NCBI GenBank assembly: GCA_020723325.1
Contig: DYJD01000002.1
Span: forward strand, 159,629-223,628
DNA length: 64,000 nt
Direction: 5' to 3'
Source of the DNA: Desulfosudis oleivorans
GTDB taxonomy: Bacteria > Desulfobacterota > Desulfobacteria > Desulfobacterales > SURF-7
Shown here piece by piece: positions 6,927-55,714 of this stretch; the stretch's first letter is position 1; each line of letters begins with the position of its first letter. The translations under genes were made by a program, and so were the position numbers. The notes below the pieces were generated by a model. That model searched no databases and was not told the origin of the DNA. It was given only the letters and a program-made list of their open reading frames with translations.

Positions 6927-7051
6927 ATCTTAATATCTTAGAATTTTTTAATATATCCAATATTTTTCAGAATTTGTAAAGCATTTTTAGACAAATGACT
7001 TCAGACGGTGAGCAAGAGTGGGATAAAACGTATCGTAACAACTCAAGTAGA

Positions 7052-7079
7052 CAGAATCCAGGAGTCAGAATTCAGAATA
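7052..7079 (+). repeat. heptamer tandem array (CAGAATC CAGGAGT CAGAATT CAGAATA)
   Basis: Four phase-exact 7-mers read directly. A degenerate REP copy (AGGAGCGGCTTCCAGCAGAGATGC) follows at 7132-7155. Confidence 0.7.
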
Positions 7080-11956: not shown

Positions 11957-11963
11957 AGATATA

Positions 11964-11986
11964 GGCTGAAGACTGAAAGGCTGAAG
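11964..11986 (+). repeat. GCTGAAG-type heptamer array immediately after the metK stop
   Basis: GGCTGAA GACTGAA AGGCTGAAG, beginning 8 nt after the TAA stop. Confidence 0.7.
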
Positions 11987-12000
11987 TAAAATGGATTGGA

Positions 12001-14648: not shown

Positions 14649-14662
14649 CGTAATCGCCATAC

Positions 14663-14709
14663 GATGCAATATGGGATCGGGGTTACGGGATACTAGATGC
14701 AAGATACGT
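14663..14709 (+). repeat. GAT-phased heptamer array after the ahcY stop
   Basis: GAT triplets at 14675, 14689, 14696 and 14703 are spaced in multiples of 7 (GATCGGG GTTACGG GATACTA GATGCAA GATACGT). Confidence 0.6.
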
Positions 14710-14913
14710 GTACAGACCGGATTGCACCTGGACCACCGATCCCTTGTTCATGATGGTCGGGGCTGAATACTGCTTCGATTACAACTACTATCTGGGAGCA
14801 TCCCAGAAAATGACAAGCATCAAGGAGGCCGTGGTCTGGCCGGCGAAATATTCATCGTGAGGAGATCGTGATTGATAACACGACTAATTATTCAAATTAA
14901 ATGATTATTTATT

Positions 14914-16783: not shown

Positions 16784-16915
16784 ATCCATATCCCGTATCT
16801 ATCCTTTCTTATTTCGCCCCCGATCCCGTTAGCTTTCCCGTATCTTCAGTATCTTCTCTCGACCCCGATACCGATAGCGACCCCGACCCCGATGGTCTCC
16901 CCGCAACCCGCATCC
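16784..16915 (-). repeat. composite heptamer/hexamer element, C-rich orientation (copy 1)
   Basis: ATC-phased heptamers flank GACCCCGATACCGATAGCGACCCCGACCCCGA (16861-16892). The architecture matches 19392-19535 and is the reverse of 18481-18600. Confidence 0.75.
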
Positions 16916-17021
16916 CCTTCCTAATCCGGATTGACTTCCCCCCATAAGCACTTATTTTCAAGTAAATGTTCCATGACGATTGCTGCTGGAATGCTGGTCG
17001 GTTACAAAAGGAGGTGTGATC

Positions 17022-18482
17022 ATGGAAGCGCTGATTAAATTTGAAGAAGTTCAAAAACAAAAAAGCCAGAACGAGCAACTTGAATATCTGGATCGTATAT
17101 TTGCCGCGCAACAAGCCGCCTTTGCCAAAAACCCCATGCCCGGCGCTGATGAACGCATCCGGCTGCTTACTTCTCTGAAACAGGCCCTGCTGAATCATCG
17201 TGAGGCCATCATCGAGGCCATTGACCAGGATTTCGGCGGCCGATCCCGGGATGAAACCTTGCTGGCCGAGATCCTGCCCAGTGTGGAGGGTATCCGCTAT
17301 GCTGTCAAAAATGTCAAAAAATGGATGAAGCCGGCCCGGCGTAAGACCGGCTTAATTTTCCAACCTGCCAAGGTCGGCGTGATTTACCAGCCCCTGGGCG
17401 TGGTGGGCATTATTGTGCCCTGGAATTATCCGGTTTACCTGGCGCTGGGACCTTTGACCTATGCCCTGGCGGCCGGCAACCGCGCCATGATCAAAATGAG
17501 CGAGTTTACCCCTCGCACTGCGGCTGTGATGAAAAAACTGCTGTACAATGCTTTTGAAGAGGAGCAGGTGGCTGTTGTAACCGGCGAAGCCGAAGTGGGG
17601 GCCGCTTTTTCCCAGAAGCCCTGGGATCACCTGCTGTTCACCGGCTCCACCACCGTGGGAAGGCATGTCATGCGGGCCGCGGCGGACAACCTCACCCCCG
17701 TGACCTTGGAACTGGGTGGCAAATCACCGGCCATCATCGGCCCGGATATCCCCTTGAAGGATGCGGCCGAGCGCATCGCCTTCGGCAAGGCTCTCAATGC
17801 GGGCCAGACCTGTGTGGCTCCGGATTATGTCCTGTGCCCCCGCAGCCGCTTGGATGCTTTTGTGGAGGAGTTCAGGGCCGCCTTTAGTCGGATGCATCCG
17901 CAGGTCAAAAACAGCCCCCATTACACCGCCGTGGTGAACCAGCGCCAGCATGAACGTCTGCTGGCCTTGCTCAAGGACGCGGAAACCAAAGGCGCCCGCA
18001 TCGTCAAGCTCGACCCGCCCGCCGAAGATTTCAACATCAACCGCAAAATGCCCATCCATTTACTGATGGGCGTGAACGAATCCATGCGGGTCATGCAGGA
18101 GGAGATCTTCGGCCCGTTGTTGCCCATAATCCCCTACGACACCCTTAAGGATGCCGTGACTTACGTGAATGAGCATCCCCGGCCCCTGGCCCTGTATTAT
18201 TTTGATTACAACCGCGAAAACACGGATTATGTTCTTTCCCGGACCGTTTCCGGCGGCGCGATAGTCAACGACACCCTGGCCCACGTGGCCCAGGACGACT
18301 TGCCCTTTGGCGGCGTCGGACCCTCCGGCATGGGCCAATACCACGGCCATGAAGGCTTCCTGACCTTTTCAAAAGCCAAGGGCGTGATGTACCAGCGGGC
18401 CTTCAACACCACCCGTTTCATCTATCCGCCCTATGGCCGGTTGATCCATCGGTTGATTTATTGGTTGTTTTTAAGAAATTGA
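17022..18482 (+). CDS. NAD(P)-dependent aldehyde dehydrogenase (coniferyl-aldehyde-DH-like subfamily)
   Basis: ATG 17022 after AAAGGAGG. Motifs: LELGGKSP (catalytic Glu), NAGQTCVAPDY (catalytic Cys), EEIFGPLLP and FGGVGPSGMGQYHG. Confidence 0.9.
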   Translation: MEALIKFEEVQKQKSQNEQLEYLDRIFAAQQAAFAKNPMPGADERIRLLTSLKQALLNHREAIIEAIDQDFGGRSRDETLLAEILPSVEGIRYAVKNVKKWMKPARRKTGLIFQPAKVGVIYQPLGVVGIIVPWNYPVYLALGPLTYALAAGNRAMIKMSEFTPRTAAVMKKLLYNAFEEEQVAVVTGEAEVGAAFSQKPWDHLLFTGSTTVGRHVMRAAADNLTPVTLELGGKSPAIIGPDIPLKDAAERIAFGKALNAGQTCVAPDYVLCPRSRLDAFVEEFRAAFSRMHPQVKNSPHYTAVVNQRQHERLLALLKDAETKGARIVKLDPPAEDFNINRKMPIHLLMGVNESMRVMQEEIFGPLLPIIPYDTLKDAVTYVNEHPRPLALYYFDYNRENTDYVLSRTVSGGAIVNDTLAHVAQDDLPFGGVGPSGMGQYHGHEGFLTFSKAKGVMYQRAFNTTRFIYPPYGRLIHRLIYWLFLRN

Positions 18483-18600
18483 TGCGGGATACGAGATCCG
18501 TGATGCGAGATGCGCGGGATTCATCGGGGTCGGGGTCGCTATCGGTATCGGGGTCGAATGCGGGATGCGAGTTACGGGATACGAGATCTGGGATAGTAAA
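18481..18600 (+). repeat. composite heptamer/hexamer element, G-rich orientation (copy 2)
   Basis: GATGCGG GATACGA GATCCGT GATGCGA GATGCGC (18481-18515), then TCGGGGTCGGGGTCGCTATCGGTATCGGGGTCG (18524-18556), then AATGCGG GATGCGA GTTACGG GATACGA GATCTGG GATAG (18557-18596). The first heptamer contains the aldehyde dehydrogenase TGA stop. Confidence 0.8.
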
Positions 18601-18610
18601 CTCAAATCGC

Positions 18611-19375: not shown

Positions 19376-19391
19376 GGCAATGAATTCCTTG

Positions 19392-19535
19392 TTTCCCGCA
19401 TCTCGTCTCTCGTATCCCGAATCCTTTATCTCATTTCTACCGCCGACCCCGATACCGATAGCGACCCCGACCCCGACAAACTCGCCCGTATCTCGCATCA
19501 CGAATCTCGTATCCAGTAACCCATATCCCGCATCC
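19392..19535 (-). repeat. composite heptamer/hexamer element, C-rich orientation (copy 3)
   Basis: Its reverse complement aligns along its length with 18481-18600, including CGACCCCGATACCGATAGCGACCCCGACCCCGA at 19446-19478. Confidence 0.8.
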
Positions 19536-19546
19536 TGAAAAAAAGC

Positions 19547-33536: not shown

Positions 33537-33770
33537 CGTGCTTGTATGCCCAACGAAAAGTTTGGGTGAGGCCAAATGCGAATAACCGTGAACTTCAAAA
33601 AGATATATAATTTTAAATATCTAATCCCGTAAGGTCAAAATACTATTTACCCCATTTGCACCGCCGAATCAACCGGTTGTGATGAAAACAACAGGGGAAT
33701 CGCATGTAAACTTGGCGCGGAATGTGCCTCCAATAATTACCAACATTTTATCCAGCGAATACCATTGTCC

Positions 33771-34083: not shown

Positions 34084-34242
34084 CCAATGAAAACAAAACG
34101 AAAACCATCCGTTTCGAATATTTTGCTGCGATAATAGCACTGCGACTTCCAACCGCGATCCGGCCGAAACGATGACCAAGGCCAAACAGCATTTAGGCAG
34201 CCGAATACGAGCACGAAAAACGGATACTTAAATTTCTTCATA

Positions 34243-34782: not shown

Positions 34783-35388
34783 ATGAAAAGTAAGGCAACC
34801 TGTAATTCAGCGGATTTTGAATCCCAGGATCTGATCCGGTCGGCGGTTCGATCCAATGCGGAGCTGGAACCTTCTGCCAGACGGGAGTTTCTGCATAAAT
34901 GCATCACCGTCGGTGGCTGGGGGGCCATGCTCCTGTGCACCGGGGCAGGCATGTATGAAACCGTTAAATTCTTTTTTCCGTCCGTGGTGTTTCAACCCCC
35001 CAGCCAGTTTAAAATCGGCTCCCCGGCCGACTTCACCAAGCCAGGTTCGCAGGACGCTTTCGGCGTGATCGCGGTGGATGACCGCTTCAAAACCGATCAC
35101 CGCTTTTTCATCATCCGGGAACCGGCCCGCATCTATGCCCTGTATGCCCGCTGCACCCACCTGGGCTGCACTATCAACTGGTTTCCCGGCATCCAAACCT
35201 TCAAATGCCCGTGCCACGGTAGCGAATTTCACTCCAATGGACGACAATTCGCCGGACCGGCTCCGCGGCCCCTGGACCGTTTAAGGATCAACCTGGATGC
35301 CCAAGGCAGCCTGGTGGTGGACACCCGCACGGTTTTTTCCGCCGCGGAATTTGAGGAAAAACAAATCTACATCAAGGTGACGACCTAG
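34783..35388 (+). CDS. Tat-dependent Rieske [2Fe-2S] subunit of a cytochrome bc/b6f-type complex
   Basis: Twin-arginine SARREFLHK followed by a TM helix. Rieske boxes CTHLGCTINW and CPCHGSEFHSNG. Confidence 0.9.
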   Translation: MKSKATCNSADFESQDLIRSAVRSNAELEPSARREFLHKCITVGGWGAMLLCTGAGMYETVKFFFPSVVFQPPSQFKIGSPADFTKPGSQDAFGVIAVDDRFKTDHRFFIIREPARIYALYARCTHLGCTINWFPGIQTFKCPCHGSEFHSNGRQFAGPAPRPLDRLRINLDAQGSLVVDTRTVFSAAEFEEKQIYIKVTT

Positions 35389-35685
35389 ATGCTGGCCCCA
35401 TCGGATCATAGTCAAAGGACCCGTTTGCGAAAAAGGCGCATTGCCCGGGTGACAGCAAGCTGCACTGGCTGTGCCGGCAGTCCCATTTGCCGGATTTTCT
35501 GCAGCCGGGCGGCTCTGACACTGGTGGATGACCCGGAAAATCATCCCTTTAAACGTATCCGGGTGGATTCATCCCGTTGTAACGGCTGCGGGAACTGTGC
35601 GGCCCGCGGACCGGGCAACACCCATCTAAGCGGATGTCCCTGGAATGCCATCCGCCTTGTTGCCATTGCGGAATTGAAAAATTAA
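35389..35685 (+). CDS. small 2x[4Fe-4S] ferredoxin-domain protein
   Basis: Its ATG abuts the Rieske TAG stop. It has CTGCAGSPICRIFC and CNGCGNC..(13)..CP cysteine patterns and a very basic N-terminus (RTRLRKRRIAR). Confidence 0.65.
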   Translation: MLAPSDHSQRTRLRKRRIARVTASCTGCAGSPICRIFCSRAALTLVDDPENHPFKRIRVDSSRCNGCGNCAARGPGNTHLSGCPWNAIRLVAIAELKN

Positions 35686-35704
35686 ACCAAATCAGGAGGG
35701 GGAA

Positions 35705-38638
35705 ATGGACCATTTTGCAGTGAACCGGCGGGACTTCCTGCGGATCAGCGGGGCCTCGGCCCTGATGCTTTCCTTGAACTCACTGGGTTTCCTCGGCGGG
35801 AACGCCCAGGCGGCTGAAAAAATATTGAATGAATGGGATTACGGGCGCTGGGAGGATCTGCACCGCAAGGAATGGACCTGGGACAAGGTCACCTTCGGCA
35901 CCCACCTGGTGGATTGCTATCCCGGCAATTGTTTGTGGCGGGTTTATTCCAAGGACGGAGTCGTCTTTCGCGAAGAACAGGCCGCCAAATACCCGGTGGT
36001 GGACCCCACCGGCCCGGATTTCAATCCCCGCGGCTGTCAGAAGGGCGCTTCCTACAGCCTGATGATGTACAATCCGGACCGCCTCAAATACCCCATGAAA
36101 CGGGTGGGCGAGCGCGGCTCCGGCAAATGGAAAAAAATCAGTTGGGACGAGGCCCTGGGTGAAATCGCCGAAGGCATTCTGGATGCCATGGAAAAGGAAG
36201 GGCCGGAATCCATCATCAATGAAAACGGGCCCGGCAACGGCGGTTATCTGCATATCATCGCCGTGCATCGCCTGGCCAAACTGCTGGGCGCTGTTTCCCT
36301 GGACACCAACACCACCATCGGTGATTTCAACCGCGGTGTTTATGAGACCATGGGCAAATTCCAATTCATGGATTCCGCCGACGGCTGGTTCTTCGGCAAA
36401 CTATTGCTCATCTGGCACATGAATCCGGTATACACCAGAATCCCGTGCTACCATTTCATTGCCGAAGCGCGTTACAACGGCGCCGAAGTCGTCACCATCG
36501 CGCCGGACTACTCCCCCAGCGCCATGCATGCCGATGAATGGGTGCCGGTGAACACCGGCGGCGACGCGGCCCTGGGGCTGGCCGTCTGCCAGGTGCTTAT
36601 TGAAAAAAATTGGCTGGATACGGCCTTTGTCAAGGAGCAGACCGATCTGCCTTTGTTGGTGCGCACGGACAATCAGCGATTCCTGCGGGCCGCGGACATG
36701 GAGGCGGACGGAAGAGACGATCAGTTTTACTACTGGGATACTGCCGGAAATAAACCGGTAAAGGCGCCCCTGGACACCTTGAAATTGCCCTGTGATCCGG
36801 CCCTTACCGGAACCCATGCGGTGACCCTGAAAAGCGGGGCCCAGATCAAGGTGCAGCCGAGCTTCAACGAGCTGAAAGAGTCACTGAACCGCGACTACCC
36901 GCCGGAAAAGGCCGCCAAGTTATGCGGCACCCATCCGGACACCATCCGGCGCTTGGCCCAGAAATGCGCCGAGGCCAAAGGCCATGTCCAGGTCATGGTG
37001 GGCTGGAATTCCCCCAAATACTACCATGGTGATCTCATCGAGCGCAGCATGTGCCTGGTGCTGGCCCTCACCGGCAGTTTCGGCAAAAAAGGCAGCGGCA
37101 TCCGCGGCTGGAACGAATCCCTTTTTGAAGGCGCCCTGCTCCAGATCATGAAACCCACCATCGGCAAAATGGCCACCATTCAACACCTGCCCAAGGACAA
37201 AAAAATCATGGCGGAGTTCAAGCGCAAGGACCCCACCCTCACCGATGAAATGCTTTCCATTCATCTGGAGCGGGAGCGCGATCGGCAGGAATTGAATTGG
37301 ACCGTGCCGAATTTTCTCTGGTATTTTCATTCCGATTACAAAATCGCCTGGGACCGTAGGGAATGGCATTGCCCCACCATGAAACGGGAATTCCCCCAAT
37401 ACATGCAGGAAGCCATCGACAAAGGCTGGTGGGACGGCTTTGTCAAACCGGCCAAGGATCAGAAACCCCTGGTCTATTTTTACATGGGCACCAATCCGGC
37501 CCGGAAAAACCGCGGCTGGAACAAAAACGTGCTGACCTCCCTGTGGCCCAAATTCAACCTCATCTTCGGCTTTGAGACCCGCTGGAGCACCACCCTCTTG
37601 TATTCGGACTATGCCCTGCCCGGCGCCGGCTTTTATGAAAAACTGGACACCCGCTTCCCCACCCCCCATGTGCCCTGGCTGACCTTAACGGATCAGGCGG
37701 TCAAACCCGTCGGCGAGTCCAAGCCCGAATGGGACATCGCCCGCCTGCTGGCGGAAAAAATCGAGGCGGCGGCCAAAAAGCGCGGGAAAACCGAATTCAA
37801 GCTGCGGGACGGCCGGGAAATCAGCCTGAAAAATTTCGGCCGGGTCCAGGCCATGGAAGCTGACAATTTTGAAGCCATCATGGAGGATGCCCTGGAATCC
37901 AGCGTCCTTTTGGGCAACCTGCCCAAGGGTACGGACCTGAACTTCATGCGCAAGGAAGGCATTGTCCGTTTTGTGGGGGTTTCGCCCTTTGACGCGGTGA
38001 GCATGAACCTGGCCACGGACATCAAGCCGGAAGAACCCATCGTGCCCCTCACCTGGCACACCGGCAAGAAGATTCCCTACCCCACTTACAACCGCCGGAT
38101 TCAATTTTACATCGACCATCCCTGGTTTGTGGAAGCCAAGGAGCAGTTGCCGGTTCACAAGCCCAATCCCAACATCGGCGGAAAATATCCCCTGACCATG
38201 ACCAGCGGGCACCAGCGCTGGAGCATTCATTCCATCTGGGTCACGGGCCAGCAACTGCTGCGCACCCACCAGGGCCGGCCTTTCATGTTCATGAATCCCG
38301 AGGACGCGGAAAAACGCGGGATCAAGAACGATGACTATGTCCATGTGTATAACGATTTCGATGATTTCTACATTCATGTGAAGCTGACCGCCTCAGCCAA
38401 ACCCGGCAAGGAGGCCCAGCCCGGCCAGGTGATTGTTTACCATGCCTGGGAACCCTTCATGTTCAAGAAATGGAAAAGCTACGACGCCGCCATTCCCGGC
38501 ATGATCAAATGGCTGGACCTGGCCGGCGGATACGGGCACCTTAATTATTGGCGCTGGAACTGGTGCCTGCAGCCGGTGGACCGCGCCATTGCAGTGGAGG
38601 TTGAAAAAATAAAGGAGAAAAACCATGAGCAACAATGA
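35705..38638 (+). CDS. Tat-exported bis-MGD molybdopterin oxidoreductase alpha subunit, type II DMSO-reductase family (ethylbenzene dehydrogenase/Nar-like)
   Basis: Tat signal NRRDFLRISGASALMLSL..AQA. FS0 motif H67-x3-C71-x4-C76-x34-C111 (THLVDCYPGNC..NPRGCQKGASYS). Candidate Mo-ligand Asp in TTIGDFNRG. 977 aa. WEDLHRKEWTWDKV, REEQAAKYP and QTDLPLLVR recall EbdA-type proteins. Confidence 0.9.
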   Translation: MDHFAVNRRDFLRISGASALMLSLNSLGFLGGNAQAAEKILNEWDYGRWEDLHRKEWTWDKVTFGTHLVDCYPGNCLWRVYSKDGVVFREEQAAKYPVVDPTGPDFNPRGCQKGASYSLMMYNPDRLKYPMKRVGERGSGKWKKISWDEALGEIAEGILDAMEKEGPESIINENGPGNGGYLHIIAVHRLAKLLGAVSLDTNTTIGDFNRGVYETMGKFQFMDSADGWFFGKLLLIWHMNPVYTRIPCYHFIAEARYNGAEVVTIAPDYSPSAMHADEWVPVNTGGDAALGLAVCQVLIEKNWLDTAFVKEQTDLPLLVRTDNQRFLRAADMEADGRDDQFYYWDTAGNKPVKAPLDTLKLPCDPALTGTHAVTLKSGAQIKVQPSFNELKESLNRDYPPEKAAKLCGTHPDTIRRLAQKCAEAKGHVQVMVGWNSPKYYHGDLIERSMCLVLALTGSFGKKGSGIRGWNESLFEGALLQIMKPTIGKMATIQHLPKDKKIMAEFKRKDPTLTDEMLSIHLERERDRQELNWTVPNFLWYFHSDYKIAWDRREWHCPTMKREFPQYMQEAIDKGWWDGFVKPAKDQKPLVYFYMGTNPARKNRGWNKNVLTSLWPKFNLIFGFETRWSTTLLYSDYALPGAGFYEKLDTRFPTPHVPWLTLTDQAVKPVGESKPEWDIARLLAEKIEAAAKKRGKTEFKLRDGREISLKNFGRVQAMEADNFEAIMEDALESSVLLGNLPKGTDLNFMRKEGIVRFVGVSPFDAVSMNLATDIKPEEPIVPLTWHTGKKIPYPTYNRRIQFYIDHPWFVEAKEQLPVHKPNPNIGGKYPLTMTSGHQRWSIHSIWVTGQQLLRTHQGRPFMFMNPEDAEKRGIKNDDYVHVYNDFDDFYIHVKLTASAKPGKEAQPGQVIVYHAWEPFMFKKWKSYDAAIPGMIKWLDLAGGYGHLNYWRWNWCLQPVDRAIAVEVEKIKEKNHEQQ

Positions 38639-39302
38639 TCAAAGCCAGCAAATAACCGCATCCAAGCTGTCGGCCTCCCGCAAGGAGCTGCTGGACCTTG
38701 GCGCCGCGGCCTGGACCAGACTGAAAAGCTTGCGGGTCGAAACCACCGCCACCCCCCTGGCCAACCAGCCATCGCCATACATCAAGGCCACCTTTGATGA
38801 AAAAGTCATCGGCGCTGTCAAGGAATTACAGGTAAAAGCTGTCCATAACGGCCAGGACATTTTCTTTTATTTTGAATGGGGCAGTGAAAATCCGAATTAC
38901 ACCATCGGCGATGTGGGCACTTTTCCCGACGGTGTGGCTCTGTTGCTGCCGTTTAAAGGGCCGGATCAGACCCCCATCAAGGAGATGGGGTCAAAGGATT
39001 TTGCCACCAACAGTTGGTATTGGCGCCCGGATTTTGAGGAAAAGCCCAAGAACCAGATCGCCCACGGCCTTTCCACCAGCCTGTACACCCAGGAGACCTC
39101 CCTGGTTTCCGTTTCCAAATGGGAAAAAGGAACCTGGCGGGTGGTGCTGGCGCGGCCTTTAACGGTCAAGGAAGAAGCCGTTAATCTCACCCCCGGCACG
39201 GAAACCGCCATCGGATTTGCGGTCTGGGAAGGCGGCAACGGCGAGCGGGGCGGCGTGAAAGCCTTTAGCAAGGAATGGCGCAAACTGATGCTGGAGGCCT
39301 GA
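38625..39302 (+). CDS. heme b-binding gamma subunit (EB_dh / EbdC-SerC-DdhC family)
   Basis: 225 aa. LQVKAVHNGQDIFFYFEW, DGVALLLPF and AIGFAVWEG.NGERGG.KA are typical of the ethylbenzene-dehydrogenase gamma fold. It overlaps the alpha stop by 14 nt. Confidence 0.8.
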   Translation: MSNNDQSQQITASKLSASRKELLDLGAAAWTRLKSLRVETTATPLANQPSPYIKATFDEKVIGAVKELQVKAVHNGQDIFFYFEWGSENPNYTIGDVGTFPDGVALLLPFKGPDQTPIKEMGSKDFATNSWYWRPDFEEKPKNQIAHGLSTSLYTQETSLVSVSKWEKGTWRVVLARPLTVKEEAVNLTPGTETAIGFAVWEGGNGERGGVKAFSKEWRKLMLEA

Positions 39303-39336
39303 TTCCGATTTGCATTCATATCAAAGGAGAGGACAT

Positions 39337-40470
39337 ATGCCGGTTGATCAAAAACAGTTGACGGATCGCGAGAAAGAATTGGCCAATGAATTGCAGGCTG
39401 TAAAAGACAGGTTGCGGACCTGTAAAAAGCAGGTGGCCATGGTCATGGATCTGAATAAATGCATCGGCTGCCAGCTCTGCTCCATGGCCTGCAAAACCCT
39501 CTGGACCCAGATCGAGGGCCGGGAGTACATGTGGTGGAACAAGGTGAACACCCAGCCGGGCAAGGGTTCCCCCAAGGACTGGGAAAGGATGGGCGGGGGT
39601 TACAAGGTGCTCTTCGGCGGCAAGGTGCGTGATCCGGTGCGCGGCCAACTGCCCACCCGCACGGATTTCGGGGACAACTGGAAATTCAATTTCGAAGAAG
39701 TCTTTGCTTCCAAGGCCGGGGGCAAGCATCTCGTGGCCAGCAACCCGGACGGCTCCGCGCCCAACTGGGCCATGAACTGGGACGAGGACCAGGGCGGCGG
39801 CAAATATCCCAATGCCTTTTATTTTTATCTGCCGCGGATCTGCAACCACTGCTCCTACCCGGCCTGTGTGGACGCCTGCCCGCGCAATGCCCTGTACAAA
39901 AGGGATTCCGACGGCGCGGTGGTGGTGGACCAGGAGCGCTGCAAGGGCTACCGCTTCTGTCTGGAAGCCTGTCCCTATAAGGTCATCTACTTCAACTTCA
40001 TCAAAAAAACCAGCATGAAATGTATTTTCTGCTACCCCCGGTTGGAAGAAAAAGTGGCCAATGCCTGTGCGCGCCAATGCACCGGCCGGGTGCGTTTTGT
40101 GGGGTTTTTGGATGACAAGGCCGGCATCATTCACAAACTCGTCAATGTCTGGAAAGTGGCCCTGCCCCTTCATCCGGAATACGGCACCGAACCCAACGTC
40201 TATTATGTTCCGCCCCTTTCGCCGCCCGCCCTGGATGAGCAAGGCCGCATCGATCCTCAAAAAGAACGCATTCCCATGGCCTACCTGCGTTTCCTGTTCG
40301 GTCCGGAAGTGGAGGGCGCCTTGCGCACCCTCAAGCAGGAACTGGAAAAAGTGCGCAAGGGCGGCAAATCCGAATTGATGGAAATCTTGATCGCCCGGGA
40401 ATGGAAGGCCATGTTCGGGCCGTTTGCCGCCGATCCGGCCCAATTGCAGCGCGCCCCCAGCAAAGGATGA
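39337..40470 (+). CDS. four-cluster Fe-S beta subunit (NarH/EbdB-like)
   Basis: ATG 39337 after AAAGGAGAGG. Motifs: CIGCQLCSMACK, CNHCSYPACVDACP, CKGYRFCLEACPYKV and CIFCYPRLE..CARQC. Confidence 0.9.
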   Translation: MPVDQKQLTDREKELANELQAVKDRLRTCKKQVAMVMDLNKCIGCQLCSMACKTLWTQIEGREYMWWNKVNTQPGKGSPKDWERMGGGYKVLFGGKVRDPVRGQLPTRTDFGDNWKFNFEEVFASKAGGKHLVASNPDGSAPNWAMNWDEDQGGGKYPNAFYFYLPRICNHCSYPACVDACPRNALYKRDSDGAVVVDQERCKGYRFCLEACPYKVIYFNFIKKTSMKCIFCYPRLEEKVANACARQCTGRVRFVGFLDDKAGIIHKLVNVWKVALPLHPEYGTEPNVYYVPPLSPPALDEQGRIDPQKERIPMAYLRFLFGPEVEGALRTLKQELEKVRKGGKSELMEILIAREWKAMFGPFAADPAQLQRAPSKG

Positions 40471-40474
40471 GTCC

Positions 40475-41182
40475 ATGGAAGCCATTATCAGTGAACAATT
40501 GCAGAACCATTTTGAAATCGCCACGGCCAACCGCAGCCGCATGTATGCCGTCATCGCCGAGATCTTCCGGTATCCGGCTGCGGATTTCCGCAAGCAGGCC
40601 CGCAACGGCGACCTGGAACAAGCTCTGCGCCGCCTCACCGACAACCTGCCCTATCCTTTTGAATGGAGCGAGACGGAAAAAAAGAACCTGCGCGCCGTTG
40701 CCCGGGTCCCGGATGAGGACCTGGAGGTGGAATTCATCCGCCTGTTCGAAGCCGGTCCTGGTCAGCCGCCCCTGCCCTTGCTGGAAGGACTGTTCCGGGA
40801 AGACCGCCAGGCGATTTTCAAGGAACTCATCCTGTTCTACAACCATTTCGGCCTGAGCTATGCCGAGGGCAGCATGGAAGACCGGCCCGACCATCTTTGC
40901 TACCAGGTGGAATTCCTGCATTTCCTGGTTTTCAAGGAACTCAAGGCCTTGCAGGCCGGCCGTGACCAAGGCCCCTATCTGCGAGCCCAAAAGGATTTTC
41001 TGGAACGCCATCCCCTGCCCTGGCTGGACCTGCTGCTGGCCAAAGTCAGTCAGATGGAACAAAAACTCCCGCCACCGGAAGAAGCCTGCCTGGAAGTGTT
41101 CCACTTCTATGCAGCCCTGCTTTCACTAACACACCGGTTTTTACATGCGGAAGGACGGTATCTTGGGGGATGCGGGATATGA
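40475..41182 (+). CDS. TorD/NarJ-family redox-enzyme maturation chaperone (delta subunit)
   Basis: Motifs RSRMYAVIAEIFRYP, EVEFIRLFE.GPG and PDHLCYQVEFLHFL are DmsD/NarJ-like. The start lies 4 nt after the beta stop. Its last codons and stop fall inside a heptamer array. Confidence 0.75.
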   Translation: MEAIISEQLQNHFEIATANRSRMYAVIAEIFRYPAADFRKQARNGDLEQALRRLTDNLPYPFEWSETEKKNLRAVARVPDEDLEVEFIRLFEAGPGQPPLPLLEGLFREDRQAIFKELILFYNHFGLSYAEGSMEDRPDHLCYQVEFLHFLVFKELKALQAGRDQGPYLRAQKDFLERHPLPWLDLLLAKVSQMEQKLPPPEEACLEVFHFYAALLSLTHRFLHAEGRYLGGCGI

Positions 41183-41210
41183 GATATACGATATGGGATG
41201 TGGGATAAGG
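41169..41210 (+). repeat. six phase-exact GAT-heptamers forming the delta/cytochrome b intercistronic spacer
   Basis: GATGCGG GATATGA GATATAC GATATGG GATGTGG GATAAGG, with GAT at 41169 and every 7 nt thereafter. The TGA stop of the chaperone gene is at 41180-41182. GATAAGGAAAAG sits just upstream of the ATG at 41222. Confidence 0.85.
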
Positions 41211-41221
41211 AAAAGACCTGA

Positions 41222-41968
41222 ATGAAACTAACCGACACCCAAATCTGGCGGTCCATATTCCGCCACCGTTTCAAAGATACGGAGCGCAACCGTTCCCTGA
41301 CGATTTCCTCCAATGTCTTTTTGCACCTGCATCCGGTGACCATTCCGGCAAAAGCGGCCCGGGTGCGCTTCACCTTCTGCCTGGGGGGGCTTACCTTTCT
41401 CATGTTCATAGTGGAGACGGTCACCGGCGTTTTGTTGATGTTTTACTACCGCCCCCTCCCGGAATACGCCTATGTGGACATAAAACTCATGGAGCACACC
41501 GTGCGCTTCGGACTTTTGCTGCGCAACATGCATCGCTGGGCGGCCCATGCCATGGTGATGCTGGTGATGCTGCACATGTTGCGGGTATTTTTGACCGGTT
41601 CCTATAAACCCCCGCGGGAGTTCAACTGGGTGGTGGGCGTGCTCCTGCTGGTGACCACCTTTCTGCTCAGCTTCACGGGCTACCTGCTCCCCTGGGACCA
41701 GCTCGCCTTCTGGGCCATCACCGTAGGATCAAAAATGGCGGCGGCCACGCCGTTTTTCGGGGTGGAGGGACCTTTTCATGAATGGCTGGGAATTCACAGT
41801 CAAAACGACATGAAATTTCTGCTGCTGGGTGACAGCGAAGTGGGCGGCAATGCCTTGCTGCGCTTCTATGTGTTGCATTGCGTGCTGCTGCCCCTGGGCT
41901 GCGCCTTGCTGATGCTGGTGCATTTCTGGCGCGTGCGCAAGGACGGGGGCATATCGCGGCCGTTGTGA
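41222..41968 (+). CDS. cytochrome b (b6-like, N-terminal four-helix subunit)
   Basis: [57 protein letters not shown] and [28 protein letters not shown]. The four heme-ligating His residues have the expected spacing. Confidence 0.9.
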
Positions 41969-41985
41969 GATAATTGCTTAAAACT

Positions 41986-42013
41986 CAGGAGTCAGGAGTC
42001 AGAAGATAGGAGA
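41986..42013 (+). repeat. CAGGAGT-type heptamer array supplying the Shine-Dalgarno of the subunit IV gene
   Basis: CAGGAGT CAGGAGT CAGAAGA TAGGAGA. The last unit (AGGAGA) ends 6 nt before the TTG start at 42020. Confidence 0.85.
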
Positions 42014-42019
42014 CCACTG

Positions 42020-42751
42020 TTGAACGAGCTGAAAACCATCGATGAACTCGAAAAAGACAAGACGGGCGAACAGGAGCTTTTCGCCTTTCCGGAGCTGGTG
42101 TTCAAGGAATTTCTAGCCATCCTGGCGGCCATGATCGTCCTGGGCCTATGGTCACTACTGATGGATGCACCATTAAAGGAAGTCGCCGATCCCAACTGGA
42201 CGGAAAACCCGGCCAAGGCCCCCTGGTATTTTGTCGGTCTCCAGGAAGTTTTGGTGTATTTCGATCCCTGGATCGCCGGTGTCTGTCTGCCCCTCTTGAT
42301 CATCCTGGGCCTTGCGGCTTTGCCCTACATGGATCCCAATCCCCAAGGGGTCGGCAAGTATGGGTTCCGGGGACGCCGTCTGGCCATATCCGTTTTTCTG
42401 AGCGGCTATATCTTCTGGTTTGCCCTGATTCTCATCGGCCAGTTCCTGCGCGGCCCGAGCTGGCATTTTTACTGGCCCTGGGAAGACTGGTCGATTGTGA
42501 AGGCGGCGGAGCCGGCCTTGACCAACCTGCCCAACCCCCTGGGCCTCGCGCTGATTGCCGGGTATTTGGGTTTGGGGATAGCGGTTACAGCCCGGACGGC
42601 ACGCCGGCGGCGGCTGGGGCGATCCGCTCAAATCAAATTCATTTGCGCCTGGATATTGATCCTGCTCATGTTCGGGGTCATGGGCAAAATGGCTTTGCGG
42701 ATTTTTTTGCATATTAAGTATATTGTATCAACCCCTTATTTTTCGATTTGA
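42020..42751 (+). CDS. cytochrome b C-terminal / b6f subunit IV-like protein (extended)
   Basis: TTG start. PNWTENPAKAPWYFVGLQEVLVYF is the PEWY-region equivalent. It has extra C-terminal TM helices. Confidence 0.8.
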   Translation: MNELKTIDELEKDKTGEQELFAFPELVFKEFLAILAAMIVLGLWSLLMDAPLKEVADPNWTENPAKAPWYFVGLQEVLVYFDPWIAGVCLPLLIILGLAALPYMDPNPQGVGKYGFRGRRLAISVFLSGYIFWFALILIGQFLRGPSWHFYWPWEDWSIVKAAEPALTNLPNPLGLALIAGYLGLGIAVTARTARRRRLGRSAQIKFICAWILILLMFGVMGKMALRIFLHIKYIVSTPYFSI

Positions 42752-42757
42752 CACGCC

Positions 42758-45004
42758 ATGGCCTTGATCCGCTCCAAATTTTCCCAACGCATGGTCTTCC
42801 TATCCTTTGCCGGTCTGTTGCTGCTCCTGACCCTGGCCGCCATTAAATCCGAAGACACCCCGGGCTGGAAAGCAATCCAGGAAACCTATCAGCGGCATTA
42901 TCAAACCAAAATTTTGGAACAGGCCCGGGCCGCCGAGGCTGCCGGGAATTCCGCTGATCTGGCCAAGTGGCAACTGCTTTTGCGCGAAAACCAAGCCGGC
43001 CGGACCGGCGAAATCCGCCAGATTTTTCTGCCGGATGCAGGGGTGCGCGACCTTTGCGGCACCTGCCATTTGGCCATGGAAAATCCGCTTTTCAAAGACT
43101 CCCCGAATCCTTTGCGGGCCCACCCCCCTGACCTGCTGAAGCACCATCCCCTGAATCGCTTTGGATGCAGCCTCTGCCATCACGGCCAGGGGACCGCCCT
43201 TTCCGCTGATAAAGCCCATGGCTTTGAAAAAAACTGGCCCAAGCCCCGGGTGCCGCTGAAATTTGTCCAGGGTCTGTGCTTCGGCTGCCATGCCAGCGCC
43301 TTTGGACTCAGCGGCGCGGAAAAAGCGGCTGAAGGCGAGGGCCTTTTTGTGGACCATGGCTGCTACGGCTGCCATTCAACCCCGGCCACGGACAAACTGC
43401 CAGCCATGGCCACCCCCCTTGACAATATCGGCGCCAAGGTTCAAACCCCGGCCTGGCTGTTCCATTGGATTCAAGATCCGGCTTCCATCCGGCCGCGGAC
43501 ACGCATGCCGGCTTTTCAATTGGAACCCGCCGCGGCCCGGCACATCACGGCCTTTCTGGTCACTCAGCAACAATCCGCCACTGCAGCGTCAACCGGAAAC
43601 CCCGGTCAAGGGAAAAAGTCACAAGGTCAATCCCTGTTTACGGAAAAAGGCTGTATCGCCTGCCACGCGGTTGCGCCGGAACAGGCCGCCCTTACCGACC
43701 GGGTGCCCAATCTTGCGGATGCGGGTTTGAAGCTGAGCCCCCAATGGACCGCTGCCTGGCTGGCCAAGCCTGCCGGGCTCATCCCCCGCACCTCCATGCC
43801 GCGCGTGCCCCTTTCAGACGAGGAGATCGCTCACCTGGGTGCTTATCTGGTCAGCCTACAGGCCCGGTCCGTGGCGGATAAACTGAGCAACACAGGAACC
43901 GACGACCCGGCCGGCGGCGATGCGGCCGAAGGGAAAAAATTGATTCAGGTTTTCGGCTGCTATGGCTGTCATCCCATTGAAGCCCTTGCCGATCCGCCCA
44001 AGGTCGGCCTGGAAGTGGCCGCCGTGGCCCGCAAACGACTGGAAGAGCTGCCCTTCGGCCACAATACCAGCGTGCCCCGTACCAAATGGGATTGGCTGCT
44101 GGCCAAGATCAAGCAACCGGATCTTTTCAAGACCGAAGACATGCCCCTGCGGATGCCTAATTATTTGCGCCCATTGGTGTTCAATGAAGCCCAGGCCGAG
44201 GCCTTGACGGTTTTTTATCTGAATCAAGGTGCCAATCTGCCTGAAAACTACCATCACAAACCCCGGCAAGAAACCGCGGTCAATATGCAAGGCAGCTTTT
44301 TGACGACCCATTACAACTGCCTGGGCTGCCATCAACTTGCCGAAGAGCAAAAACCCCGGATCGCCGAACATCTGGCCTTGAAATCCATGATTCCGCCCCG
44401 TCTTATCGGCGAAGGCCAGCGGGTCCAGCCCCAGTGGTTCTTCCAATTCCTGAGCCGTCCCGGGGAAATGCGGCCCTGGCTGAAAATGCGCATGCCGGAA
44501 TTCGCCTTTACCTATGCTGAAAAAACCGCATTGATCGACTATTTTATCTGGCAGTCCGCTGCTCCGGGAAAGGACCGGCCCGAGGCCCCTTACGTACTGC
44601 TGCCGGTGCAGAGCGATTTTGAGGCGGAAAGCCTGCAAATGGGCGAATATCGCCTGGTCACGGATAAATGCATGCAGTGTCATCCGGTCAACCAGGAGGC
44701 CGCTTTGCCCCAGGATGTGAAGGTGGAGGACTTGTCCATCAACCTCATGCTGGCCAAATCCCGGTTGCGGTTTGAATGGATCAAGAACTTCCTGCGGAAT
44801 CCGGATCAATATTCCGGCAAGGACACCAAAATGCCCTTTGTTTACTACACCCCGGACAAGGTGCCGCGCATTCCCGACCCGGAGATGTGGATCGAATACA
44901 CCGCCCGCTTCCTGATGTTCATGGACCGGACACCTGAAATCAAACAAGCCAAACAGGTGGAAGCGCTTCGCCCGGGCAGCGAAGTGGATTGGACGAGTTA
45001 TTGA
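42758..45004 (+). CDS. membrane-anchored octaheme c-type cytochrome
   Basis: N-terminal TM helix MVFLSFAGLLLLLTLAAI. Eight CxxCH motifs: CGTCH, CSLCH, CFGCH, CYGCH, CIACH, CYGCH, CLGCH and CMQCH. Confidence 0.85.
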   Translation: MALIRSKFSQRMVFLSFAGLLLLLTLAAIKSEDTPGWKAIQETYQRHYQTKILEQARAAEAAGNSADLAKWQLLLRENQAGRTGEIRQIFLPDAGVRDLCGTCHLAMENPLFKDSPNPLRAHPPDLLKHHPLNRFGCSLCHHGQGTALSADKAHGFEKNWPKPRVPLKFVQGLCFGCHASAFGLSGAEKAAEGEGLFVDHGCYGCHSTPATDKLPAMATPLDNIGAKVQTPAWLFHWIQDPASIRPRTRMPAFQLEPAAARHITAFLVTQQQSATAASTGNPGQGKKSQGQSLFTEKGCIACHAVAPEQAALTDRVPNLADAGLKLSPQWTAAWLAKPAGLIPRTSMPRVPLSDEEIAHLGAYLVSLQARSVADKLSNTGTDDPAGGDAAEGKKLIQVFGCYGCHPIEALADPPKVGLEVAAVARKRLEELPFGHNTSVPRTKWDWLLAKIKQPDLFKTEDMPLRMPNYLRPLVFNEAQAEALTVFYLNQGANLPENYHHKPRQETAVNMQGSFLTTHYNCLGCHQLAEEQKPRIAEHLALKSMIPPRLIGEGQRVQPQWFFQFLSRPGEMRPWLKMRMPEFAFTYAEKTALIDYFIWQSAAPGKDRPEAPYVLLPVQSDFEAESLQMGEYRLVTDKCMQCHPVNQEAALPQDVKVEDLSINLMLAKSRLRFEWIKNFLRNPDQYSGKDTKMPFVYYTPDKVPRIPDPEMWIEYTARFLMFMDRTPEIKQAKQVEALRPGSEVDWTSY

Positions 45005-45012
45005 TGTTGTTT

Positions 45013-45058
45013 TATTGGTCCTATTAGTCTTATTGGTCCTATTGGTTCAAACCAATAG
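45013..45058 (+). repeat. nonamer array (TATTGGTCC x4 variants) ending in a hairpin
   Basis: TATTGGTCC TATTAGTCT TATTGGTCC TATTGGTTC (45013-45048). TATTGG (45040-45045) pairs with CCAATA (45052-45057). Confidence 0.8.
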
Positions 45059-45082
45059 AACCATTTTTCCCGAGGTCTAACA

Positions 45083-55612: not shown

Positions 55613-55680
55613 AGTTTATATACTACAAACCAAGGCCTGACCATCAACCCAAATTACCGGAGCGCAGCGCCCCCTCCTCC

Positions 55681-55708
55681 CTTCGGTCTTCAGCCTTCAG
55701 CCTTCAGT
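55681..55708 (-). repeat. GCTGAAG-type heptamer array immediately after the FecR-domain gene stop
   Basis: The plus strand reads CTTCGGT CTTCAGC CTTCAGC CTTCAGT, which is ACTGAAG GCTGAAG GCTGAAG ACCGAAG on the coding (minus) strand. It lies 7 nt downstream of the stop. Confidence 0.8.
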
Positions 55709-55714
55709 CTTTTT

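Follow-up and report, generated by a model that had tools for sequence, protein, structure and literature searches.

Two heptanucleotide tracts occupy successive intercistronic junctions of one respiratory operon in the 64,000-nucleotide stretch of DNA analyzed here (the window), one between the genes for a chaperone and a cytochrome b (junction 1) and one between cytochrome b and a subunit-IV-like membrane protein (junction 2). The reading that we favor, with a probability of roughly 0.6, is that each tract is a solo copy of a dispersed heptanucleotide family (GGGATRY and TCAGRAK, respectively), recently inserted and tolerated as selfish or neutral DNA, rather than an element that punctuates the operon. 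Comparison with orthologous operons shows both junction arrays to be lineage-specific relative to the closest relatives. Features of the window are listed in Table 1.

An earlier note on this DNA described six phased units between the chaperone and cytochrome b genes, GATGCGG GATATGA GATATAC GATATGG GATGTGG GATAAGG (41169-41210), with the chaperone's TGA inside the repeat. Sequence and coordinates are both correct, and the TGA (41180-41182, in unit 2) is in frame with the open reading frame 40424/40475-41182. In protein alignments, orthologues of the chaperone run five or six codons past the position of this TGA, and the C-terminus reads RYL-GGCGI* in the window versus xTLLAx* in the orthologues. 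The alignment shows the array to have overwritten these last five to six chaperone codons: 18 nt are replaced (in L084, for example, AAAACCCTGCTGGCCCCC), and the replaced bases have no similarity to the array. The array amounts to a net insertion of ~23 nt, which shifted the chaperone frame, and translation therefore now stops at the in-repeat TGA, 24 nt upstream of the old TAA. The distance from stop codon to ATG has consequently increased from 12-13 to 39 nt. The units themselves match at only 72-74%, and because no two adjacent units are identical the array should slip poorly. It can be aligned over its full length with the arms of both A and B, two composite repeats described below (z of ~8 versus shuffles), and shares with them the start GGATGCGGGATAYG.

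The arrays were also thought to donate a Shine-Dalgarno sequence, and the alignments speak against this. The AAGGAA at junction 1, 9-10 nt upstream of the cytochrome b ATG, lies in a segment (41206-41221) that aligns with the array-less relatives L082 (TAAGGGAAGAACGTTT-ATG) and L084 (TAACGGAAAGCGCCC-ATG). At junction 2 the reported repeat is present, as TCAGGAG TCAGGAG TCAGAAG ATAGGAG at 41985-42012, although its fourth unit is the ancestral Shine-Dalgarno region (42006 onward), leaving three clean units. The AGGA core and its spacing are conserved in relatives without arrays (L082, AAAGGAAGACATTC-GTG; L084, CAAGGAAGGCGCTC-GTG), and the AGGAG is 7 nt upstream of the TTG at 42020, which is the start in the source gene call and aligns with the GTG starts of relatives. 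Because the cores at both junctions align with those of relatives, they are ancestral. Junction 2 has three AGGAG motifs in all, and shuffled windows are expected to contain 0.027 arrays each that equal this one in quality (TRF score of at least 36).

Table 1. Repeat arrays and associated genes in the window
Feature	Position	Strand	Remarks
Second TCAGRAK array	7051..7078	+	Four units; reverse complement ATTCTGA ATTCTGA CTCCTGG ATTCTGT
ARRCTGA heptamer array	11963..11990	+	6 nt past metK stop
GAT-type tract D	14649..14716	+	Starts right after ahcY stop; left end of 2.28-kb insertion
Composite repeat C	16785..16930	-	Upstream of aldh, at right end of 2.28-kb insertion
Composite repeat A: GAT heptamers, 33-nt hexamer core TCGGGGTCGGGGTCGCTATCGGTATCGGGGTCG, GAT heptamers	18481..18603	+	At formerly overlapping aldh/trmO junction
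Composite repeat B, inverted copy of A	19390..19545	-	~15-20 nt past trmO stop
NarJ/TorD-like chaperone gene (PF02613)	40475..41182	+	Last 5 codons (GGCGI) repeat-encoded
Junction 1 array: GGGG and six GATNNNN units (GGGATRY type)	41165..41210	+	Solo copy of GAT-type heptamer family
Chaperone stop codon TGA	41180..41182	+	Inside array unit 2; in frame with 40475-41182
Ancestral TAA stop (out of frame by 2) and ancestral 13-nt spacer with SD-like AAGGAA	41206..41221	+	From alignment
Cytochrome b gene (PF00033)	41222..41968	+	ATG at 41222
Junction 2 array TCAGGAG TCAGGAG TCAGAAG	41985..42005	+	Reverse complement CTTCTGA CTCCTGA CTCCTGA, of the MTYCTGA family
ATAGGAG ACCACTG, ancestral Shine-Dalgarno region	42006..42019	+	AGGA core and spacing kept in relatives
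Subunit-IV-like membrane protein gene, TTG start	42020..42751	+	From ORF and alignment; no Pfam match
Repeat at a third junction of this operon, TATTGGTCC x3.8	45013..45058	+	Runs into hairpin, then TTTTT; fold z -2.7
ARRCTGA heptamer array	55680..55711	-	3 nt past stop of FecR-like gene

The proposal that the arrays punctuate the operon fares poorly against its orthologues. Five relatives, including the two closest (whose cytochrome b proteins are 88-90% identical to that of the window), have a chaperone-cytochrome b gap of 11-13 nt and no array. A metagenome search with the chaperone yielded just four loci in which cytochrome b is encoded as well, and among three more distant metagenome operons this spacing is 7 nt in one and 19 nt in another, the third (L092) having a different heptamer array; overall, the gap is 7-19 nt in L082, L084, L086, L088, L090/L091, and L093. 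Seven of the eight orthologous junctions thus lack the array, and L092, the eighth, bears another heptamer family. In the five relatives and the two metagenome operons without arrays the operon is intact, the exception to unchanged gene structure being the small difference at the chaperone C-terminus. Other heptamer families are found in further spacers of the same operon, between the alpha and EB_dh genes in L088 and at both the beta|chaperone and chaperone|cytochrome b junctions in L092; these spacers have been colonized independently by different heptamer families. The four unit families of the window do not occur in 1.33 Mb of other loci, ~100 kb of which are from Desulfosudaceae. The operon and proteins of the window place it in the Desulfosudaceae; its cytochrome b shares 79% identity with the Desulfosudis oleivorans protein, and the relative P0003, at 88%, carries the annotation of a Thermodesulfobacteriota metagenome-assembled genome. 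An assembly artifact is ruled out, as no array exceeds 46 nt and the identical sequence was obtained with a second assembly pipeline. The independent Logan assembly L001 (a 9-kb contig, the sole match in an exact-protein look-up of the window's cytochrome b) shows 100% identity to the window across 8,446 nt and is therefore the same strain.

The survey of repeats covers 64 kb of this genome. There are four period-7 arrays with at least 3.8 copies (0.017 expected) and seven period-6 arrays (0.017 expected), and the arrays of four to six units, for which 0.00-0.03 are expected per shuffled window, qualify as long simple sequence repeats. All of the ~14 short-period sites are intergenic, in a window that is ~93% coding. 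The claim that arrays sit at gene boundaries is supported: seven of the nine in long spacers begin within 15 nt past the upstream stop codon (P of ~4e-5, for a threshold picked after inspection of the data), showing that the arrays are preferentially located a few bases from a stop codon, and two stop codons (those of the chaperone and the aldehyde dehydrogenase) are literally repeat-derived. The arrays adjoining gene 3' ends are imperfect, with about 72-80% unit matches; phase-variation (contingency) repeats are perfect ones in a promoter or 5' coding region, with copy numbers that vary between isolates. The contexts of these families within the window do not support operon punctuation: the families lie antisense as well as sense, and also outside operons, between convergent genes, on the promoter side of genes, and in 3'-UTRs. 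Period 7 recurs in this clade with many unrelated units (GAT, TCAGRAK, ARRCTGA, ACAGTGG, AATTAAT, TCAGGGA, GCTAACA, and TGGTTAT).

The GAT type of junction 1 resembles the arms of a composite repeat, which is present in three copies in the window; five phased GAT units are matched three times, versus 0.00 expected. The 33-nt hexamer core is identical across the three copies, and the order of multiple units is common to arrays at different loci. The aldehyde dehydrogenase TGA (18480-18482) had been attributed to a GAT array as well, and it does share 2 nt with the first GAT unit. In relatives this protein ends in LFLR* and its gene overlaps trmO in an ATGA, whereas in the window it ends in LFLRN* and trmO is ~150 nt away. 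The spacer between ahcY and aldh is similarly enlarged, from 110-113 nt in relatives to 2,373 nt, with the stop codon and a conserved GGTTGACTT as the boundaries of the insertion. Inverted GAT and hexamer tracts bound both the 2.28-kb insertion and ~240-bp units, and every hexamer array of the window belongs to a pair. The ahcY-aldh-trmO regions of L217 and L219 contain no arrays; in L217 the ancestral aldh/trmO junction is GATGACCGATACC, which is a possible proto-repeat. By this comparison, a GAT-type element is shown to have separated the once overlapping aldh and trmO genes, and further copies flank the 2.28 kb of foreign DNA that lie directly past the ahcY stop codon.

The two junction arrays are unstructured. 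Folding of the RNA at junctions 1 and 2 gave no structure above that of shuffled sequences (z of -0.33 and +0.63), and a REP- or BIME-like stem-loop is accordingly lacking from both regions. Neither array has a terminator, or an inverted partner within 600 nt, and no inverted partner was seen in the 6927-7194 spacer around the 7051-7078 array. The whole window has no Rfam match at the gathering threshold. A G-quadruplex at the junction arrays was considered and rejected, the central loop at junction 1 being 18 nt; canonical G4 motifs in the window are confined to a hexamer array (62338-62359) and a few coding sites. The ~30 window proteins scanned include no transposase, RAYT, or reverse transcriptase, and no target-site duplication is visible at the insertions. 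In MITEs and transposon termini, terminal inverted repeats are accompanied by a target-site duplication and a cognate transposase. The REP/BIME sequences of enterobacteria are the best-studied repeats that act as operon punctuation; they are imperfect palindromes that fold, they affect mRNA stability, and REPs are mobilized by RAYT transposases. Like the window arrays they are short and dispersed, and lie within operons and at the 3' ends of genes, but the window arrays are direct repeats, unstructured, and without a RAYT in view.

Other known heptamer systems offer closer parallels. The STRR sequences of cyanobacteria have the canonical units CCCCAGT (STRR1), TTGGTCA (STRR2), and CAACAGT (STRR3), none of which occurs in tandem on either strand of the window. 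STRR and the window arrays are alike in being dispersed, intergenic tandem 7-nt units, some of them within one operon, and intercistronic STRR heptamers, such as those of hupS-hupL, have been proposed to aid transcript stability and translational coupling (PMC2670836). They differ in that STRR tracts often form hairpins and that their hosts are heterocyst-forming cyanobacteria, a different phylum from the Desulfosudaceae. The suggestion that such arrays were undescribed outside heterocystous cyanobacteria is not supported, since TAACTGA heptamers have been reported in marine Beggiatoaceae, cyanobacteria, and Bacteroidetes (MacGregor 2015, PMC4679880). These also have period 7, with two to six units, lie overwhelmingly in intergenic DNA at gene boundaries, are patchily distributed across phyla, and have a CTGA core in common with MTYCTGA and ARRCTGA. 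TAACTGA itself does not occur in the window, and it is placed in the sense orientation just upstream of start codons, where it replaces the Shine-Dalgarno sequence; the window arrays are near stop codons, in both orientations, and beside an ancestral Shine-Dalgarno sequence. Long simple sequence repeats with units of 5-11 nt, the general class, are described as mostly noncoding and sporadic across phyla, with heptanucleotides the commonest (Mrazek et al. 2007, as cited in PMC4679880). That is a statistical description in which slippage is assumed, whereas copies in the window share multi-unit order and some of them end inserted DNA.

The claim of novelty also overlooked Geobacter metallireducens, a member of the Desulfobacterota with published heptanucleotide families, including intra-operon MTYCTGA (PMC2700814). 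Its 'class 3' multicopy elements consist of five tandem heptanucleotides with the consensus MTYCTGA, and are absent from G. sulfurreducens (Aklujkar et al. 2009, PMC2700814); binding of IHF/HU or a 'global regulator' was hypothesized for them (PMC2700814). The class 3 units ATTCTGA, CTCCTGA, and CTTCTGA are the reverse complement of the TCAGRAK arrays in the window, and both the junction 2 array and that at 7051-7078 conform to the class 3 unit consensus of supplement Figure S5; the reverse complement of 7051-7078 agrees with Gmet_I301A in 27 of 28 positions and with Gmet_I303A in 21 of 21. Like the window arrays, and in the same phylum, the Geobacter elements are intergenic, lineage-specific, and also found between co-operonic genes, with MTYCTGA arrays separating moaA|mosC and proB|proA. 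They differ in forming opposite-strand pairs ~75-115 nt apart, whereas the window copies are solo; the Geobacter sites have about five units each, the window copies three or four. G. metallireducens has another heptanucleotide family, GGGACCG x4, in 49 copies (PMC2700814), and the GAT-type family of the window is not among the families described for it.

Both families extend to viral contigs, where MTYCTGA x4 occurs in 64 stretches and GGGATRC x3 in 11; the same unit set is found in Geobacter and viral contigs far above chance. Proximity to stop codons is again evident (28-34% of arrays versus 8.6% of random positions), whereas positions before start codons are not enriched (15% versus 23% at random), and there is no orientation preference at gene ends. 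We note that in the viral contigs L171, L200, and L193 a TCAGRAK array fills the stop-to-ATG spacer and is the sole source of AGGAG, and for this reason the TCAGRAK family as a whole may have a translational role. In L204 a stop codon is followed by a GGATGCG array, a loop, GCATCC x4, and TTTTTT, and in L214 and L216 (GGGATGC)3 arrays adjoin the cyanobacterial HIP1 palindrome.

If the junction tracts are tolerated insertions, as we favor, both families would recently have invaded the intergenic DNA of this Desulfosudaceae lineage. The copies would probably have spread by transposition or an illegitimate-recombination process, local slippage alone being insufficient, because the inserted sequence is unlike what it replaced yet like other genomic copies. 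Their position at stop codons could reflect either a target preference or the least constrained DNA, and any effect on expression would presumably go no further than a weakening of termination-reinitiation coupling at junction 1 and, at junction 2, the addition of two SD-like AGGAG motifs. It is rather improbable that the arrays instead grew in place by replication slippage in a 7-nt register, without dispersal and with convergent units. Such growth would fit the recurrence of period 7 with many unrelated units in this clade, the reported prevalence of heptanucleotides among long prokaryotic repeats (Mrazek 2007, as summarized in PMC4679880), and the possible proto-repeat in L217, but it does not account for the 18 dissimilar nucleotides replaced at junction 1, for the multi-unit order and identical 33-nt hexamer core common to separate loci, or for the same unit set recurring in Geobacter and viral contigs. 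Very improbable is the derivation of solo arrays from paired inverted arrays that once formed 3'-end hairpins (terminators, or REP-like mRNA stabilizers) and have since lost one half. This would explain the proximity to stop codons, and paired configurations are indeed seen at L204, at Geobacter class 1-3 sites (mostly opposite-strand pairs), in the forward and inverted-like arrays at junction 1 of L092, and in the window's hexamer arrays; against it, neither junction array has a partner remnant within 600 nt, relatives have no ancestral hairpin at these junctions, and a terminator within a conserved operon would be disruptive.

A function in mRNA, which broadens the idea of the earlier note, is unlikely. 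The arrays could be cis-elements (standby or multiple Shine-Dalgarno sites, or CsrA-, Csp-, or S1-like binding arrays) that tune the coupling of cistrons or the stability of transcript segments, and it is suggestive that both junction arrays are sense, unstructured, and purine-rich, and that junction 2 has three AGGAG motifs. GGGAUGU resembles the CsrA SELEX core, ARGGAUGU. Similar roles have been proposed for STRR (PMC2670836) and TAACTGA (PMC4679880). However, the closest relatives do without the arrays in intact operons, the working Shine-Dalgarno cores are ancestral, the units are decaying (72% matches), and the same families lie antisense and outside operons; and although some viral-contig arrays occupy complete stop-to-ATG spacers, those arrays as a set show neither start-codon enrichment nor a preferred orientation. 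Heptamer arrays do recur in this operon in L088 and L092, and this independent colonization, taken with the tight proximity to stop codons, could also stem from selection for a function at intercistronic sites. A broader and doubtful idea is that TCAG/CTGA-core arrays (TCAGRAK=MTYCTGA, ARRCTGA, TCAGGGA, TCAGTGG, and TAACTGA) and GGGATRC arrays are horizontally mobile 3'-end-targeting elements, shared across phyla and with phage-like contigs, with dedicated placement at stop codons in lieu of slippage. If so, they could re-terminate genes, split overlapping pairs, and admit foreign DNA, and would constitute a general, unrecognized kind of element.

Returning to the reading of tolerated insertions, the arrays belong to repeat families already known in Geobacter and many environmental sequences, and are not a new form of operon punctuation. 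A Desulfosudaceae lineage is thereby added to those in which heptanucleotide repeats are known to abound. That the window shares the Geobacter unit set, that this set and the GGGATRC type occur in dozens of viral contigs, and that the arrays lie near stop codons suggest movement of the repeats from genome to genome, with a favored landing site. The operon provides a comparative example of heptamers entering a tightly packed transcription unit, in which a C-terminus was rewritten and a stop codon moved while the operon remained unbroken, and in which, as at aldh/trmO, junctions of 13 nt or overlapping genes became spacers of 40-150 nt after repeat insertion.

The two arrays, one between the chaperone and cytochrome b genes (junction 1) and one between cytochrome b and the subunit-IV-like gene (junction 2), are best explained as solo members of dispersed heptanucleotide families, recent arrivals in the intergenic DNA of this lineage. 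Re-reading of the sequence confirmed both the phased heptamers and the position of the chaperone TGA reported in the earlier note. Neither tract is attributable to chance, since counts are far above shuffled or expected values: five phased GAT units are found three times in the window (0.00 expected), period-7 arrays of at least 3.8 copies four times and period-6 arrays seven times (0.017 expected for each), and an array equal in quality to that of junction 2 is expected only 0.027 times per shuffled window. The same sequence is present in a Logan assembly (L001), which is 100% identical across 8.4 kb and thus represents the same strain and is uninformative on copy-number variation.

Coordinates of the repeat arrays and associated features (window positions, except for L092, a JGI metagenome relative)
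Feature	Position	Strand	Details
Operon	34783-47662		Rieske, ferredoxin, molybdopterin oxidoreductase, EB_dh haem subunit, 4Fe-4S subunit, chaperone, cytochrome b, subunit-IV-like protein, multihaem cytochrome c, NosD-like protein
Junction 1 array	41169-41210	+	GATGCGG GATATGA GATATAC GATATGG GATGTGG GATAAGG
Chaperone stop TGA	41180-41182	+	closes ORF of NarJ/TorD-like chaperone (PF02613)
Cytochrome b start ATG	41222	+	
Junction 2 tract	41985-42012	+	TCAGGAG TCAGGAG TCAGAAG ATAGGAG; 7 nt 5' of subunit-IV-like TTG start
GAT-type heptamers	14649-14716 (D), 18481-18603 (A), 41165-41210	+	
GAT-type heptamers	19390-19545 (B), 16785-16930 (C)	reverse	
TCAGRAK heptamers	7051-7078 and 41985-42005		
ARRCTGA heptamers	11963-11990 and 55680-55711 (reverse)		
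TCGGGG/TCGGTA hexamers			occur as inverted pairs
2.28-kb insertion	14649-16928		relative to L217, L219; begins exactly after ahcY stop
Membrane-protein ORF	14914-15276		30% GC; in 2.28-kb insertion
HigA-like HTH gene	15900-16187	minus	in 2.28-kb insertion
HigB toxin gene (PF05015)	16199-16477	minus	in 2.28-kb insertion; higBA-like toxin-antitoxin pair
L092 arrays	361-408, 1153-1186, 1211-1243		

The operon containing both junctions is kept gene for gene in Desulfosudis oleivorans and several Desulfosudaceae MAGs, and the window is therefore assigned to that family. Its genes pair a type II molybdoenzyme resembling ethylbenzene dehydrogenase with a Rieske/cytochrome b/subunit IV module, and it also encodes a multihaem cytochrome c of 748 aa and a beta-helix NosD-like protein. 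The spacer between these last two genes (45005-45082) is a third repeat junction, 78 nt long versus 14-32 nt in the closest relatives, in which TATTGGTCC x3.8 leads into a hairpin (CTATTGGTT-CAA-AACCAATAG; fold z-score -2.7) and then TTTTT; the hairpin may be an internal terminator or attenuator.

Approximately 14 intergenic sites in the window have short-period arrays, and there are none in coding sequence. They sort into four families, GAT-type, TCAGRAK, and ARRCTGA heptamers and TCGGGG/TCGGTA hexamers, and are found in both orientations at intra-operon junctions, at convergent gene ends, and in promoter-side DNA. GAT-type sites A, B, and C are copies of one composite element in which heptamers lie on both sides of an identical 33-nt hexamer core (TCGGGGTCGGGGTCGCTATCGGTATCGGGGTCG), and the junction 1 array aligns over its full length with the heptamer arms of this element, with a common start, GGATGCGGGATAYG. 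The composite copies alternate in orientation, placing the aldehyde dehydrogenase gene (aldh) and trmO each between inverted copies, and recombination between these could invert or excise either gene.

At junction 1, the gap between the chaperone and cytochrome b genes is 39 nt in the window versus 11-13 nt in L082, L084, L086, and L088 (cytochrome b 90, 88, 79, and 78% identical, respectively; L082 and L084 are the two closest relatives, and L088 is a more distant Desulfosudaceae MAG), 19 nt at loci L090/L091, and 7 nt at L093. The chaperone sequences align collinearly as far as an invariant tyrosine (…RYL); beyond it, the orthologues end with xTLLAx* and the window protein with GGCGI*. The window has a net 23 nt more DNA here, and its TAA-GGAAAAGACCTGA-ATG aligns with TAA-GGGAAGAACGTTT-ATG of L082; the old chaperone TAA no longer lies in frame, being off by 2 nt, and translation is ended by the TGA inside the array. 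The changed C terminus, the additional DNA, and the displaced TAA together show that the array was inserted into the chaperone 3' end, overwriting five or six codons. At junction 2, the spacer varies from 22 to 70 nt in relatives and is conserved only in an AGGA core and in how far this lies from the start codon; the start is preceded by ATAGGAGACCACTG in the window (TTG start), AAAGGAAGACATTC in L082 (GTG), and CAAGGAAGGCGCTC in L084 (GTG). The array proper is the three units 5' of this motif, and it is missing from the two nearest genomes. The proposal that the arrays donate Shine-Dalgarno sequences is thus not supported at either junction: the AAGGAA located 9-10 nt before the cytochrome b ATG sits in the ancestral segment, and the conserved core and start spacing show the junction 2 Shine-Dalgarno to be ancestral.

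Comparison of the ahcY-aldh-trmO region with the corresponding loci of the two closest genomes (L217 and L219) reveals further insertions. In L217 and L219, the aldehyde dehydrogenase terminates in …LFLR* and its gene overlaps trmO at an ATGA; the window protein terminates in …LFLRN*, and the two genes are kept apart by ~150 nt of repeat. As the earlier note had proposed, the GAT array provides this stop codon, which is formed by a T and the first GA of composite element A. The ahcY-aldh spacer is 2,373 nt in the window versus 110-113 nt in L217/L219, with homology ending exactly at the ahcY stop and returning at a conserved GGTTGACTT near 16929; the edges of the 2.28-kb insertion are GAT tracts D and C, inverted to each other. 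No transposase-like gene was found among the window proteins scanned. Each of the three GAT-type sites that could be tested is an insertion when set against the two nearest genomes, and the junction 2 array is missing from them as well: a burst of repeat activity confined to the lineage of the window.

The four window families have no occurrences in the other loci compared, which total 1.33 Mb, ~100 kb of it from Desulfosudaceae. Other heptamers are present in the operons of relatives. The alpha|EB_dh spacer of L088 has TCAGGGA-type and GCTAACA arrays (7192-7230 and 7332-7360), the first beginning directly after the stop codon, and L092 (cytochrome b identity 83%) has, within 2 kb of operon, three or four arrays of other families. 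These include AATTAAT x6.9 between the beta subunit and chaperone genes, and ACAGTGG/TCAGTGT x4.9 with an inverted-like partner in a 117-nt spacer at junction 1, beginning 3 nt after the chaperone stop. Period-7 arrays are therefore recurrent in the intergenic DNA of the clade, and they turn over rapidly.

The main rival explanation is that the arrays have a regulatory role, and it draws on the recurrence of heptamer arrays in operon spacers and on viral contigs (L171, L200, L193, and L153) in which an array makes up the complete stop-to-ATG spacer. RNA folding of the two junction arrays predicts no structure (z -0.33 and +0.63), no inverted partner was found for either, and neither matches any Rfam family. 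The proximity of arrays to gene 3' ends is real: in spacers long enough for free placement, seven of nine window arrays begin no more than 15 nt past the stop codon of the preceding gene (P ~4e-5 under uniform placement, with the threshold picked after the data were seen). Similarly, the ends of long ORFs lie within 25 nt of 28% (sense) and 34% (antisense) of 61 viral TCAGRAK arrays, versus 8.6% at random; downstream ORF starts are not enriched (15% versus 23% at random), and Shine-Dalgarno donation is thus not the general role of the arrays. The ARRCTGA arrays at 11963-11990 and 55680-55711 lie 6 and 3 nt after the metK and FecR-like gene stops, both sense, and because a period of 7 puts the unit TGA in all three frames within three units, such an array stops any frame. 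A TCAG/CTGA core is over-represented among the period-7 families seen in this analysis (6/15 arrays, P ~9e-5; 4/12 distinct families, P ~3e-3), and this, with the sharing of units across phyla, leaves room for the more speculative idea that these arrays are mobile elements targeting gene 3' ends.

Heptamers of this kind have been described elsewhere. Multicopy tandem-repeat elements are abundant in Geobacter metallireducens, also of the Desulfobacterota. Among them are 49 that consist of four GGGACCG heptamers, and 'class 3' sites, each with five MTYCTGA heptamers, that lie between moaA|mosC and proB|proA, with the units ATTCTGA, CTCCTGA, and CTTCTGA in Figure S5 (Aklujkar et al. 2009; PMC2700814). 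The reverse complement of window 7051-7078 matches Geobacter Gmet_I301A at 27/28 positions, and that of junction 2, CTTCTGA CTCCTGA CTCCTGA, consists of units in that figure. TAACTGA heptamers adjoin gene starts in Beggiatoaceae, cyanobacteria, and Bacteroidetes (MacGregor 2015; PMC4679880), and Mrazek, as cited there, found heptanucleotides to be the most frequent class of long simple repeat in prokaryotes. Cyanobacterial STRRs between hupS and hupL have been proposed to act in transcript stability and translational coupling (PMC2670836). MTYCTGA x4, which reads as TCAGRAK on the complementary strand, is present in 64 IMG/VR viral-contig stretches (L138-L201) versus ~1e-3 expected by our own estimate from information content, in arrays of 4-12 units, and GGGATRC x3 is present in 11, adjoining the cyanobacterial HIP1 palindrome in some contigs. 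Given these reports and matches, the earlier note's view of an undescribed system does not hold; its observation stands and its interpretation is partly supported, but novelty and Shine-Dalgarno donation fall away.

On the TCAGRAK strand, 27 of the 61 viral arrays evaluated fall within an open frame, and these might code for repeat peptides; a single contig (L150) contains five arrays. At locus L204 (~3419-3500, minus strand), inverted heptamer arrays make up an intrinsic terminator immediately after a stop codon: a GGATGCG-type array and GCATCC x4 are separated by a loop, and TTTTTT follows. At L202 (9228-9400), a GGGATRC array comes first, then a CGCCGT hexamer array, and then one of ACTGGGA heptamers, so heptamers and hexamers are combined just as they are in the window.

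Other repeats accompany these families in the window. Inverted repeats of ~400 nt with 85% identity (33692-34095 and 50930-51431) lie 17 kb apart, each containing a ~240 bp unit whose hexamer-array arms (TCGGGG TCGGGG TCGGTA… / …CGACCC CGACCC) surround a palindrome, GGGGCGGTTCGCGAACCGCCCC, with a third copy of the palindrome region at 31754-31833; the repeat looks MITE-like, and neither a target duplication nor a transposase was seen for it. An inverted hexamer-array pair (62200-62232 / 62317-62361) surrounds 85 nt 5' of a CHASE2-adenylate cyclase gene, and its right arm includes a canonical G-quadruplex motif, (GGGGTC)4 (62338-62359, minus strand). In a third hexamer family (16610-16724), TCGTGC x3 faces ACGAGC x6 across ~57 nt, a potential long hairpin. 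GGCCTTAAYC…GCATCGCGGCTGGAAGCCGCTCCCAC, a small dispersed repeat that contains a palindrome, has three copies around molybdenum-cofactor genes (48819-48875, 50861-50917, and 51291-51335 [reverse]).

We favor recent colonisation over a regulatory role as the explanation of both junction tracts. Dispersed heptamer families would have settled in the intergenic DNA of this lineage. At junction 1 an insertion struck the last codons of the chaperone gene, giving rise to the in-array TGA; this stop codon does lie in the array, as had been claimed, but its 'donation' is a by-product. The arrays would be tolerated because the ORF end is preserved and the ancestral ribosome-binding sites are left in place. 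The likely consequences are weaker termination-reinitiation coupling at junction 1 and, at junction 2, two added SD-like motifs, located 21 and 28 nt before the start codon.
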